The translations under genes and the position numbers were made by a program. Below are positions 1,149-4,323 of a stretch of DNA of 13,358 bases, piece after piece. Numbering within the stretch: position 1 is the first letter of the stretch; each line of letters begins with the position of its first letter. The stretch is from Promethearchaeia archaeon (lineage in GTDB: Archaea > Asgardarchaeota > Lokiarchaeia > Sigyniarchaeales > SOKP01): NCBI GenBank assembly GCA_046497275.1, contig JAWOFX010000025.1:1-13358 (forward strand), given 5' to 3'. A model generated the notes under the pieces. The model was not told the DNA's origin. It was given only the letters and a program-made list of their open reading frames with translations, and searched no databases.

Positions 1149-1931
1149 TTGGATTTCGATTTTCCGTTTAATCCATTTTTAGTTGGTATAATAGCTCTTA
1201 TCGTAGTTATAAGTATATTTATTATCATTTTACTGGCTACAAGTGTCAAAATAGTCACAGAATATAATAGGTTAATAGTATTCAGATTTGGAAGATATAA
1301 AAGAACTGTTGGTCCAGGAATTGTCGTTATTTTACCGTTCATAGAACGTTCTGAGATGGTTGATTTAAGAATAAAAACATTAGACATTGCGCGCCAAGAG
1401 ATTATAACTAAAGATAATATTCCAATAACCATCGATACATCCGTTTTTTATAAAGTAATTAATCCGGAGTATGCGAAAACGAAGATTGAGAATTTTGTTA
1501 GGGCTGTTTTAAATTATACCCAAGGTGCTCTCAGAGATGTTATTGGGAACATGGAATTAGATGAAGTACTGACCCAAAGAGAAAAGATCTCCAGTGAAAT
1601 TCGCAGGGTCGTAGATGAAGAAACAAGAGAATGGGGTATTGAAATAAGCCAGATTAAGATCCAACAAATCGAGCTTCCAGAAAATATGAAGCGTGCGATG
1701 GCAGTTCAAGCAGAAAAAGAAAGAGAGAAGAGAGCTGCGATAATTGCCTCTGAAGGAGAGTTAGAAGCCTCAAAGAATATTGCGGAAGCTGGCAGAATAT
1801 TATCTGAAACACCATCTGCAATTCAACTCCGTACACTGCAAACAATTCAAGATATTGCTCAAGAGCCATCTCAGAAGATCTTAATTTTTTTACCAACTCA
1901 AATTGGAAAGCTGCTTGACAAATTTAAATAG
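1149..1931 (+). CDS. SPFH/band-7 stomatin-like membrane protein
   Basis: N-terminal hydrophobic anchor, then FRFGRY..TVGPG...ILPFIE, VDLR, QEIITKDN, LRDVIG.MELDE.L..RE.I, WGIE, MA.QAE.ERE.RA.II.SEGE, and C-terminal PSAIQLRTLQTI resembling stomatin PAALQLRYLQTL. TTG start with SD. Confidence 0.95.
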   Translation: MDFDFPFNPFLVGIIALIVVISIFIIILLATSVKIVTEYNRLIVFRFGRYKRTVGPGIVVILPFIERSEMVDLRIKTLDIARQEIITKDNIPITIDTSVFYKVINPEYAKTKIENFVRAVLNYTQGALRDVIGNMELDEVLTQREKISSEIRRVVDEETREWGIEISQIKIQQIELPENMKRAMAVQAEKEREKRAAIIASEGELEASKNIAEAGRILSETPSAIQLRTLQTIQDIAQEPSQKILIFLPTQIGKLLDKFK

Positions 1932-1938
1932 AGAGTGA

Positions 1939-1968
1939 TTTTCTTTAACTTTTTTTTTATCTTTATTT
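1939..1968 (+). terminator. Putative archaeal-type oligo(T) terminator after the SPFH gene
   Basis: T-rich tract with a T9 run at 1950-1958, directly after the stop codon. Confidence 0.4.
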
Positions 1969-2045
1969 CCACATACTAAGAAATATTAGTCCCATTTGAT
2001 ATCTAAATAATTGATAGAAAATATTTTTTTACTGAATATCATCAA

Positions 2046-2051
2046 GAGTGA
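2046..2051 (+). promoter_or_regulatory. Shine-Dalgarno-like site GAGTGA
   Basis: Lies 6 nt before the ATG at 2058. Same motif and spacing as before 9287. Confidence 0.5.
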
Positions 2052-2057
2052 AAAATA

Positions 2058-3056
2058 ATGGAAAAAACAGTTTTAAATTTGAAGTACTCCTTTTTGCATG
2101 AATCGCAAATGATTTCTCTCTATAAAATATTTTCACGAAAAGCAGCCCAAGAAGGATATAATTTAATATCAAACTTTTTTGAAGATATATCAATTAATAA
2201 ACAACAAAATGCATATTGGACTTACATGATACTGCAGAAATTAGATGATCTACAAGAAATCGAAGAATCTTCCGTAAAATTCGAAGATATTCCCTCAATA
2301 GGAACAACTTCAGAAAATCTTGCAACTGCAGTGAAGATTGAAGATTATGAGTGGAGAATAATGTATGATGATTTTGCAAAGACTGCCAGAGAAGAGGGTT
2401 TGGATGAGATTGCATCTCGACTTCAACTTATTTCAAATAGAGAGCGTAAATTCTTCGAGCGTTTTAAAATCTTTTCTAGTCTATTTTCTGATAAAAAATT
2501 AATGAGAAATCAGAGTATTGTGGTGTGGGAATGTCAAGGATGCGGATTTCAAATAGCAAAAGAAAACTTACCAAAAGATTGGGTATGTCCTTCATGTGGG
2601 CATCTTCAAACTTATTTTGAAAAAAAGTTTTTAAATTACACTACTGGAGATAGAAATGTATGGGTATGTATGGAGTGCGGTGAAGAGGTAAATATAGAAA
2701 ATTTACCAAGAGATTGGAATTGTCCGAATTGCGGTAAACCAAAGGAATATTTCCGAAGGAAAAAATCAGATAATGTGAAAGATGACATCTTCAGCTTACC
2801 AAAATCAGAATGGGAATGTATGGAATGTGGAAATACTGCGATTGCAATGGATGAGTTACCAGATGATTGGAAATGTATAAATTGTGGAGCATCAAAAGCA
2901 TATTTTAGGCGAATATCAACTAAACCCAGTAAAACGACCTATACGTTCAAAAAGCGAGAAAAAGCGATTTGGTATTGTCCTTCTTGTGGGAAAGAGGTAG
3001 AAATAGATCTGCCTCCTAATTGGAAATGTCCTACTTGTGGATTCTCAGTATACTAA
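2058..3056 (+). CDS. Rubrerythrin-like ferritin-fold domain (degenerate diiron site) fused to four rubredoxin-like CxxC...CxxC modules
   Basis: aa 1-150 align by eye to rubrerythrin (ESQ...Y..F...A..EG, T.ENL, E..E...MY..FA..AREEG..EIA). aa 157-332 contain four WxCxxCG-x(11-13)-W-x-CxxCG modules bearing the rubredoxin LPx(D/N)WxC motif. Confidence 0.85.
   Translation: MEKTVLNLKYSFLHESQMISLYKIFSRKAAQEGYNLISNFFEDISINKQQNAYWTYMILQKLDDLQEIEESSVKFEDIPSIGTTSENLATAVKIEDYEWRIMYDDFAKTAREEGLDEIASRLQLISNRERKFFERFKIFSSLFSDKKLMRNQSIVVWECQGCGFQIAKENLPKDWVCPSCGHLQTYFEKKFLNYTTGDRNVWVCMECGEEVNIENLPRDWNCPNCGKPKEYFRRKKSDNVKDDIFSLPKSEWECMECGNTAIAMDELPDDWKCINCGASKAYFRRISTKPSKTTYTFKKREKAIWYCPSCGKEVEIDLPPNWKCPTCGFSVY
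2526..3053 (+). repeat. Four protein-level tandem repeats (rubredoxin-like modules) at about 2526-2627, 2661-2762, 2811-2912 and 2970-3053
   Basis: Cys pairs at C159/162-C177/180, C204/207-C222/225, C254/257-C273/276 and C307/310-C324/327. Diverged at DNA level. Confidence 0.9.
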
Positions 3057-3126
3057 CTTTTTAAAACTATTTCAATTATTTTAATAATCTCATTAATTAT
3101 TAATTTTTTAGTTAATTGAAACAATT

Positions 3127-4323
3127 ATGTCTTTTGAAAAAGAAATTGAACTCGCTAAAGATCATTTCGCACAAATAGTTAAAGAACAATTAGAACGAAT
3201 TAAACGCTTAAAGGAAGAAGGAGATTGGATTGATTATTCTAAGTTAGAGCCCATAATTATTGGAATTATTGGAGGGGATGGAATCGGCCCGGAAATCTCT
3301 CGCTATGCTAAGAAAGTTCTTGAATTTTTGCTAAGAAAGGAGATAAAGAACAATAAGATTGAATTAAGGACTATAGAAGGATTAACTATTGAAAATAGAG
3401 CAAAATTAATGGAAGCTGTACCTAAGAACGTGCTGGAAGTGATTAAAAAGTGTCATGTATTATTAAAAGGTCCAACTACTACACCTCGAAAGGGAGATAA
3501 ATGGCCGAATATAGAAAGTGCGAATGTAGCTTTAAGACGGACGCTCGATTTATTTGCAAATATTAGACCTGTAAGAGTTCCAGAGAAAAATATAGACTGG
3601 TTATTTTTTAGAGAAAATACTGAAGGTGCCTATATATTAGGTTCAAAAGGCATAAATATAACAGAAGATTTAGCAATCGATTTTAAAGCAATTACCACAC
3701 AAGGTGCCGAACGTATCCTAAAATTAGCATTCGAATATGCTGAAAAAAATAATATAGATAAAGTAACAGTCGTCACAAAAGCGAATGTTATCAAAACATC
3801 AGATGGTAAATTCTTATCAATTGCTGAAAAAATCGCTCAAGAATATCCCAATATAGAGGTAGATGATTGGTATATTGATATTATTACTGCAAAACTTATT
3901 GATCCATCTCGTCAAAGTCAATTCAAAGTCTTTGTTGCCCCTAATTTATATGGAGATATTATCACTGATGAAGCTGCTCAAATGCAAGGAGGTGTGGGTA
4001 CTGCAGGGAGTGTTAATCTTGGTAAACGATATGCCATGTTTGAGGCAATTCACGGATCCGCACTAAGAATGGTAGAAGAAGGACGATCTCAATATGCAGA
4101 TCCTTCAAGTTTGCTACGCGCTGTTGTAATGATGTTGGATCATATTGGCTTTGAAAAGAATGCAAAACACCTTGAGATGGCTCTTGATATCTGCGGTACA
4201 TATGAGAAAAAGATTTTTCCAACGGGACGATCAAATGGAGCAACTGGGGAAGACTATGTGAAATATATAATGAATACACTTCAAGACTCTAAGTTGGAAC
4301 AAAAATGGAAATCTTTTCAATAA
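3127..4323 (+). CDS. Isocitrate/isopropylmalate (beta-decarboxylating) dehydrogenase family; probably isocitrate or homoisocitrate dehydrogenase
   Basis: GDGIGPEI, LKGPTTTP, SANVALRR.LDLFANIRPV (the Ser/Asn pair is IDH/HICDH-like, not the IPMDH Glu-Leu-Leu type), RENTEGAY, TKANVIK.SDG.F, PNLYGDIITD, FEAIHGSA. Confidence 0.9.
   Translation: MSFEKEIELAKDHFAQIVKEQLERIKRLKEEGDWIDYSKLEPIIIGIIGGDGIGPEISRYAKKVLEFLLRKEIKNNKIELRTIEGLTIENRAKLMEAVPKNVLEVIKKCHVLLKGPTTTPRKGDKWPNIESANVALRRTLDLFANIRPVRVPEKNIDWLFFRENTEGAYILGSKGINITEDLAIDFKAITTQGAERILKLAFEYAEKNNIDKVTVVTKANVIKTSDGKFLSIAEKIAQEYPNIEVDDWYIDIITAKLIDPSRQSQFKVFVAPNLYGDIITDEAAQMQGGVGTAGSVNLGKRYAMFEAIHGSALRMVEEGRSQYADPSSLLRAVVMMLDHIGFEKNAKHLEMALDICGTYEKKIFPTGRSNGATGEDYVKYIMNTLQDSKLEQKWKSFQ

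Follow-up and report, generated by a model that had tools for sequence, protein, structure and literature searches.

We describe a gene, P0001, on a 13,358-nt stretch of DNA (contig JAWOFX010000025.1 of the Promethearchaeia archaeon assembly GCA_046497275.1; hereafter the window), whose product places four tandem rubredoxin-like modules behind a rubrerythrin-type helical bundle in which three of the seven diiron ligands have been replaced. Canonical rubrerythrin reduces peroxide at a diiron site and carries a single Fe(Cys)4 domain at its C-terminus; in solved rubrerythrins (1ryt) this Cys4 domain binds iron, and it hands electrons to the diiron site. P0001 and its relatives form a lineage-restricted Asgard family descended from ordinary rubrerythrin, in which the Cys4 module multiplied first and the diiron site then eroded repeatedly and independently. 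This account draws on what can be observed directly: the architecture, the ligand loss, the history of the family, its pattern of conservation, its synteny, and its presence in RNA libraries. As to function, the reading we favor, though with somewhat less than even confidence, is that P0001 is a multi-center Fe(Cys)4 electron carrier in which the bundle now acts as a scaffold.

Architecture of the protein

The frame at 2058-3056 is the only long one at that place (open reading frame listing and translation); its parts are listed in Table 1. A Pfam search assigns residues 7-137 to Rubrerythrin (PF02915, E 7.8e-16), followed by four stretches each of RUBY_RBDX and Rubredoxin, the latter (PF00301, E 1.2e-13) covering only profile positions 29-47, and the same search gave no match to NfeD (PF01957) or Flavin_Reduct (PF01613) in P0001. 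The protein has 16 cysteines, and because all 16 sit in the module motifs, the modules are not a product of chance. An AlphaFold2 model built from 45 sequences contains a confident four-helix bundle (helices 2-31, 35-65, 84-112, and 116-144; predicted local distance difference test score, pLDDT, ~90), modules of intermediate score (pLDDT 55-80), and linkers predicted to be disordered (pLDDT <50); searched with Foldseek, it ranks the rubrerythrins 1b71 and 1ryt at the top. An initial annotation of this DNA had proposed one rubrerythrin bundle followed by four Cys4 modules with 16 cysteines, which the Pfam matches, the cysteine count, and the structural model with its Foldseek ranking all bear out. 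It had given the spacers between the cysteine pairs as 13 or 15 residues; the four modules stand, but the lengths do not, the real spacers being 14, 14, 15, and 13. Motif comparison agrees with it again on an LPx(D/N)WxC motif in every module (LPKDWVC, LPRDWNC, LPDDWKC, and LPPNWKC) and on a YF tail in three, directly after modules 1-3 and not after module 4. Module 1 is the orthologue of the single rubredoxin-like domain of rubrerythrin, module 3 is, by alignment, the one missing in three-module members of the family, and module 4, which follows a conserved EKAIW lead-in, is the C-terminal end of the protein.

Table 1. Coordinates of P0001, its parts, and the upstream gene in the window.
Feature	Position	Strand	Description
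Whole gene P0001	2058..3056	+	332 codons + stop; rubrerythrin-like bundle, then four mini-rubredoxin modules
Ferritin-like four-helix bundle, rubrerythrin type	2058..2507	+	residues 1-150; degenerate diiron site
Codons of changed ligands	K48 2199-2201, N51 2208-2210, F132 2451-2453	+	E15, E95, E98, E129 retained
Module 1	2520..2627	+	residues 155-190; C-x2-C-x14-C-x2-C; Cys C159/162/177/180
Module 2	2655..2765	+	residues 200-236; C-x2-C-x14-C-x2-C; Cys C204/207/222/225
Module 3	2805..2918	+	residues 250-287; C-x2-C-x15-C-x2-C; Cys C254/257/273/276
Module 4	2967..3053	+	residues 304-332; C-x2-C-x13-C-x2-C; Cys C307/310/324/327
SPFH/Band_7 (stomatin/HflK-like) gene	1149..1931	+	Pfam Band_7 E 2e-40; N-terminal transmembrane helix
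Intergenic region	1932..2057	+	oligo-T tract right behind SPFH stop; GAGTGA ribosome-binding-like site before ATG

The modules share with rubredoxin, including 1SPW and the free rubredoxins of the same genome, the segments W-x-C-x-x-C-G and LPDDW-x-C-P-x-C-G-x-x-K-x-F, and the second of them matches the loop-truncated Desulfovibrio gigas rubredoxin 1spw at E 3.3e-5 (phmmer against the PDB). A full rubredoxin, however, has ~45-55 residues with a ~29-residue segment between its knuckles, whereas the modules of P0001 have ~35 residues and spacers of 13-15 and follow one another in a single chain with a ferritin-like domain. All four show the rubredoxin combination of knuckles, aromatic residue, and (L/I)PxDWxCPxCG but not the full-domain length, and we would describe them as rubredoxin-like in motif rather than as full rubredoxin domains. 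Nucleic-acid binding by the basic YFRRK linkers was considered as well; the pI (isoelectric point) is 5.8 for the whole protein and 7.5 for the tail, and the net charge per module ranges from -3 to +1.

Loss of the diiron ligands

P0001 aligns with D. vulgaris rubrerythrin (1ryt/1b71) by phmmer at E 5e-20 to 3e-17. In this alignment four ligands are kept (E20, E94, E97, and E128 as E15, E95, E98, and E129), three are replaced (E53 by K48, H56 by N51, and H131 by F132), and the second-shell tyrosines Y27 and Y102 are retained as Y22 and Y103; P0001 has no ExxH motif. A manual alignment in the initial annotation had arrived at the same picture, with both histidines and one glutamate lost and both tyrosines kept. 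The resulting pattern, E-K-N-E-E-E-F, is common to all close orthologues (64-92% identity; P0001-P0005 and L013). With K48, N51, and F132 fixed in this way a canonical diiron site cannot form, in line with the annotation's view that P0001 cannot be a normal diiron peroxidase.

By two measures P0001 still resembles a rubrerythrin, namely a homologous bundle and a Cys4 domain directly behind it. By two others it does not: it lacks the full set of seven ligands (E, ExxH, ExxE, ExxH), and it scores 151.6 bits against the NCBIfam equivalog NF045767 RuberyRbr, under the cutoff of 200. Because of the latter two results P0001 should, on the evidence of its sequence, be filed as rubrerythrin-derived and not as a rubrerythrin. 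Compared with canonical rubrerythrin (D. vulgaris 1RYT/1B71; Clostridioides difficile 9FJ2), it has the same bundle fold and the same order of bundle and Cys4 domain, but four modules with x13-15 spacing and the LPxDW motif instead of one with x12 spacing, along with the three replaced ligands.

Origin and distribution of the family

A word-indexed search through 5.8 billion proteins yielded 19 full-family homologues. They have 278-369 residues and three or four modules, the only organism names among them are those of Lokiarchaeota or Promethearchaeota metagenome-assembled genomes (MAGs), and their product names are 'hypothetical protein', 'rubrerythrin', and 'ferritin family protein'. In an exhaustive phmmer search of 1.84 billion cluster representatives (50%-identity clusters) only 15 proteins reached E<=1e-30, of which about 6 belong to the multi-module family and the others are poly-rubrerythrins. 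Across 400 genomes of the phylum, the multi-module forms are limited to three genus-level groups (g1, g6, and g12), all in P0001's own family-level group; the matches elsewhere in these genomes are single-module rubrerythrins of ~200 residues.

For 61 sequences we tabulated the number of modules and the residues at the seven ligand positions, and a phylogeny was inferred with IQ-TREE from the bundle and module 1. The multi-module proteins are monophyletic (support 100/99), and their sister clade consists of single-module rubrerythrins of the same archaeal family (L032, L033, and L036-L041), which share ~40% identity with P0001 as well as the x14 spacing and the ELPxDF/W motif. These relatives differ from P0001 in having all seven ligands, ~194 residues, a single module, and no SPFH gene (see below) within the fetched flanks. 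Within the family, all seven ligands are retained in the four-module proteins L018-L020 and P0011, one is missing in the three-module proteins P0014, P0016, and P0019, the subclades neighboring that of P0001 read E-K-H-Q-D-E-F and E-K-Y-Q-E-E-F, and further subclades read E-K-Y-L-E-K-N or E-V-H-I-I-K-Y. The claim that ligand loss is conserved in orthologues therefore holds at 64-92% identity but fails for some more distant members, which keep their ExxH motifs, and the label 'pseudo-rubrerythrin' given in the initial annotation suits several sublineages, including that of P0001, but not the whole family, since L018-L020 and P0011 have seven ligands.

When the ligand columns are left out of the tree, two to eight state changes map to each ligand position and four to module number. 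Coding the site as a single parsimony character (seven ligands intact or not) gave only two changes and was uninformative, and the per-position counts were used instead. Because multi-module members with intact ligands exist, module multiplication preceded ligand loss. Modules 2 and 3 are nearly identical in alignments of the P0011 lineage, which points to a recent duplication, and the four-module state arose at least twice.

Selection and expression

The module cysteines are invariant in 35 of 35 non-identical multi-module proteins; at the ligand positions of the same proteins the frequency of the top residue is 0.31-0.89. Mean entropy is lowest in the modules (1.2-1.5 bits), which are thus the best conserved part, against 1.85 bits in the bundle, 2.45-2.7 bits in the first two linkers, and 1.8 bits in the third, which includes the lead-in to module 4. 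Against the 92%-identical orthologue L068, the ratio of nonsynonymous to synonymous substitution rates (dN/dS) is 0.245 over the whole gene; the bundle alone gives 0.157 and the modules plus linkers 0.349, all from small counts. Invariant cysteines and low dN/dS together mark the gene as functional, with Cys4 sites that are indispensable and a bundle that still matters as a folded domain. Since the ligand loss is shared by orthologues and the gene is under purifying selection, neither sequencing error nor one-off decay explains it.

A related possibility, that P0001 is a decaying rubrerythrin paralogue without function, could appeal to the eroded ligands and to fast evolution, the rubrerythrin-like gene being 36-66% identical across loci as against 77-91% for the adjacent SPFH gene. 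It is contradicted by a frame that is intact in all lineages, by the invariant cysteines and the dN/dS of the gene, and by the gene's occurrence in RNA libraries of two studies, and we consider it scarcely credible. A second possibility is that the bundle still binds metal at a remodeled, carboxylate-rich site (E15, E95, E98, and E129, with K48 nearby) and acts as a peroxidase, oxidase, or ferroxidase fed by the four modules. The four retained ligands and both second-shell tyrosines are consistent with such a site, as are the fixation of E-K-N-E-E-E-F down to 64% identity and the stronger purifying selection on the bundle than on the modules. However, both histidines and one bridging-site glutamate have given way to lysine, asparagine, and phenylalanine, the sister subclades show different and additional losses (K..Y, Q/L..E, and K..K/N) that indicate relaxed constraint, and the RuberyRbr score falls below its cutoff; on balance a remodeled catalytic site seems improbable.

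Metatranscriptome contigs from two salt-lake studies match parts of the P0001 gene and of the SPFH gene, most with no mismatches; such contigs speak for presence in the libraries, where DNA carry-over is possible, and not for transcript starts, ends, or levels. No metatranscriptome contig was found to bridge positions 1842-2063, from the SPFH gene to P0001, and contig cover is nil at 900-1142, 2439-2600, and 3006-3300. Synonymous divergence (dS) from L068 is 0.15 for the P0001 gene (2058-3053) and about four times higher in its flanks: 0.65 for the SPFH gene (1149-1928) and 0.62 for the isocitrate/isopropylmalate dehydrogenase-family gene on the other side (3127-4320). Recent recombination or replacement of the P0001 gene alone, or strong constraint at the codon or RNA level, could possibly account for this low value.

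Candidate role of the Cys4 modules

The carrier role that we favor would have evolved in steps. The C-terminal domain of an ordinary rubrerythrin multiplied into three or four tandem, loop-less mini-rubredoxins. The founder of the family probably remained active as a rubrerythrin and had an extended arm for electron input. The P0001 lineage lost E53, H56, and H131 and with them, most likely, peroxide reduction at the diiron centre; selection retains the Cys4 modules and the folded bundle. In P0001 as it stands, we infer that each module binds one iron in the manner of rubredoxin, that the protein acts as a one-electron carrier or relay in the rubredoxin network of the organism, and that the bundle is a scaffold for oligomerization or docking; the conserved SPFH neighbor hints at a location at a membrane scaffold.

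This role is favored because of the rubredoxin motifs, the descent from an iron-binding domain, the occurrence of tandem modules in redox contexts, and the rubredoxin partners in the genome. The modules and the free rubredoxins of the genome have in common W-x-C-x-x-C-G and LP-x-D-W-x-C-P-x-C-G-x-x-K-x-Y-F. Redox partners in the genome include an NAD(P)H:rubredoxin reductase-rubredoxin fusion, free rubredoxins, and two intact canonical rubrerythrins, both with seven of seven ligands. The reductase fusion (447 residues, rubredoxin at the C-terminus; L008:1483-2826 on the minus strand, contig C65) is flanked by two genes for small rubredoxins of 53 and 55 residues and is a likely electron source for the organism's rubrerythrins. 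The same genome encodes an acyl-CoA dehydrogenase with a C-terminal full-length rubredoxin (468 residues; L005:1489-2895, minus strand, contig C118). Because the two canonical rubrerythrins, of 167 and 192 residues, are intact, P0001 might form heterodimers with an active rubrerythrin, as the initial annotation suggested.

Tandem modules in a redox context are found in fusions to flavin reductase: P0085 (a bacterial protein, grouped with P0180; Pseudomonadota MAG) joins a flavin reductase to three x14 RUBY_RBDX modules, P0062 combines a flavin reductase, two modules, and a rubrerythrin with its own module, and P0045, whose 90%-identity cluster has 8514 members, has a flavin reductase, one module, and a rubrerythrin with its module. 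Like P0001, these chains carry one to three tandem mini-rubredoxins of the RUBY_RBDX type with x14 spacing; unlike it, they have a flavin input domain and often an intact rubrerythrin, whereas P0001 lacks a flavin domain and its diiron site is degenerate. By analogy, the tandem modules of P0062 and P0085 may serve as a precedent for an electron relay. The sole named example of such a fusion is from a bacterial MAG, and we take these proteins to resemble Hrb, the high-molecular-weight rubredoxin of Moorella thermoacetica. The fused chains of P0085 and P0062 may also be undescribed.

Several considerations weigh against a relay of iron centers. Cys4 knuckles are good zinc binders too, and the two metals cannot be told apart from sequence; iron binding, redox behavior, and activity are predictions for all members of the family. 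The linkers are predicted to be disordered, so the model gives no support to a rigid wire in which the irons sit a short distance apart, and it places the modules relative to one another with low confidence. The modules of P0085 and P0062 sit next to a redox enzyme domain; those of P0001 have beside them only a bundle whose redox site is partly lost, which leaves no evident electron sink. The four carboxylates remaining in E-K-N-E-E-E-F, moreover, might still bind metal.

The first of these considerations leads to a different proposal, in which the modules are Zn(Cys)4 ribbons forming a protein-protein adaptor or an oxidation-sensitive zinc switch, for example as a structural or regulatory partner of SPFH, and carry no electrons. 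The modules do match zinc-ribbon Pfam families (DZR, HypA, and Zn_ribbon families), and flexible linkers would suit an adaptor. The top matches, however, are the rubredoxin-like domain of rubrerythrin and rubredoxin, the aromatic residues and LPxDW motifs are foreign to generic zinc ribbons, and the modules stem from an iron-binding domain. A zinc adaptor, for which the synteny considered in the next section also speaks, seems unlikely to us, though it is the strongest of the alternatives. A buffer or chaperone for iron or zinc, with four Cys4 sites per chain holding or delivering metal under metal or oxidative stress, would fit the density of metal sites, the ferritin-superfamily ancestry, and a FeoB gene a few kilobases away at the orthologous locus L042. 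FeoB is near in that one locus only, there is no signal of iron regulation, and rubredoxin-type sites bind metal tightly and, to our knowledge, are not known as exchange sites; we regard this role as very unlikely.

The neighboring SPFH gene

The P0001 gene lies between an SPFH gene upstream and the isocitrate/isopropylmalate dehydrogenase-family gene, with a glutamate dehydrogenase gene farther upstream. The SPFH neighbor, which the initial annotation did not mention, is conserved: in 23 of 23 genome loci with a multi-module gene, an orthologue precedes that gene on the same strand, inside the 1.5-kb flank in 21 of them and 1.8-2.1 kb off in the other two. These two loci (L014 and L017) were considered as exceptions to the synteny and rejected as such. 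Independent metagenome contigs show the same linkage; among them is the P0011 locus, at which no other neighbor is shared. Near the seven single-module sister loci no SPFH gene was found within the fetched flanks, several of which are short. The SPFH gene in the window apparently starts at a TTG preceded by GGGTGA, which resembles a ribosome-binding site; one contig from an RNA library has its first base at 1148. In 14 aligned upstream regions of the family no shared TATA/BRE-like block was found, the oligo-T tract being all that is conserved. In the P0006 lineage a gene for a 68-residue tautomerase-family protein (L042:5553-5759) stands between the SPFH gene and the multi-rubredoxin gene.

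NfeD is the usual prokaryotic partner of SPFH proteins. The genome of the window, which is 98.9% complete, has one SPFH/Band_7 gene, the one at 1149-1931, and no NfeD domain (PF01957) was found in it. The multi-rubredoxin protein could be imagined as a dedicated SPFH partner in NfeD's place, a membrane-associated sensor of redox state or oxidative damage whose dead bundle docks on SPFH and whose Cys4 string carries electrons to membrane-proximal targets or senses oxidants; we hold this to be a long shot. A complex prediction of SPFH residues 32-260 with P0001 scored 0.00 with both alignments, in runs for which the controls were not performed, and gives no verdict either way.

The synteny, its absence beside the seven single-module relatives, and the lone SPFH gene in a genome without detectable NfeD would also suit the zinc adaptor discussed above. 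For either proposal, and for the link to SPFH that we infer under electron carriage, the difficulty is that the arrangement may be inherited from one ancestor and not re-selected, because the family-bearing groups share the most similar SPFH proteins (70-86% among g1, g6, and g12, against 62% or less elsewhere) and other lineages pair SPFH differently. In lineages without the multi-module gene, a conserved OMP-decarboxylase/HUMPS-family gene (PF00215; 223-228 residues) stands 2-26 nt behind the SPFH orthologue (55-62% identical), and the two make an apparently operonic pair that recurs across several family-level groups (L048:2959-4423, L049-L060, and L063). Upstream of the SPFH orthologue in g13/g12 loci without the multi-rubredoxin gene (L048:2412-2732 on the minus strand, L049, L052, and L063) there is also a divergent gene for a protein of ~100-106 residues with an N-terminal transmembrane helix and a C-terminal zinc ribbon.

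Discussion

Rubrerythrins are among the main peroxide defenses of anaerobes, and their architecture has been thought well cataloged. A survey of 2631 of them in 2016 found only four layouts of rubrerythrin (Rbr) and rubredoxin domain (RD): Rbr-RD, RD-Rbr, RD-less, and long-spaced-RD (PMC5114695). By its domain order, Rbr-(RD)3-4 would be a fifth. The initial annotation did not recognize the architecture as a described one, and we found no description of a rubrerythrin with three or four tandem rubredoxin modules in the literature, most subscription journals being outside the scope of the search; the family appears to be undescribed. The only described tandem rubredoxin that the search turned up is the two-domain AlkG of the Pseudomonas alkane hydroxylase system, in which each domain binds one iron (PMC3604635). 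AlkG resembles P0001 in having more than one rubredoxin domain in a chain, but its two domains are full-length, joined by a 70-residue linker and unaccompanied by a ferritin-like domain, and it serves the AlkB monooxygenase in aerobic bacteria. The poly-rubrerythrins (P0032, with 1957 residues, and P0037-P0044; 700-1957 residues overall) also repeat rubrerythrin-family elements in one chain and score well against P0001, but they repeat the whole unit of bundle and one Cys4 domain three to eight times, with ExxH intact, whereas P0001 repeats the Cys4 module alone. One of their relatives, P0071, has an Ig-like domain and a Por secretion tail.

The family offers a natural series in which a catalytic site erodes repeatedly after an electron-carrier domain has multiplied. 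It thereby illustrates how an enzyme can become a non-catalytic redox or scaffold protein, and members with intact and with eroded sites are at hand for biochemical comparison. If the four centers of P0001 hold iron, they would be the densest natural string of rubredoxin centers found in our search, and the compact module of ~35 residues may interest protein designers. The family does not extend beyond Lokiarchaeota-type Asgard archaea, and its genes are positionally linked to the sole SPFH scaffold gene of these organisms; the way these archaea handle oxygen and redox stress bears on models of the origin of eukaryotes.

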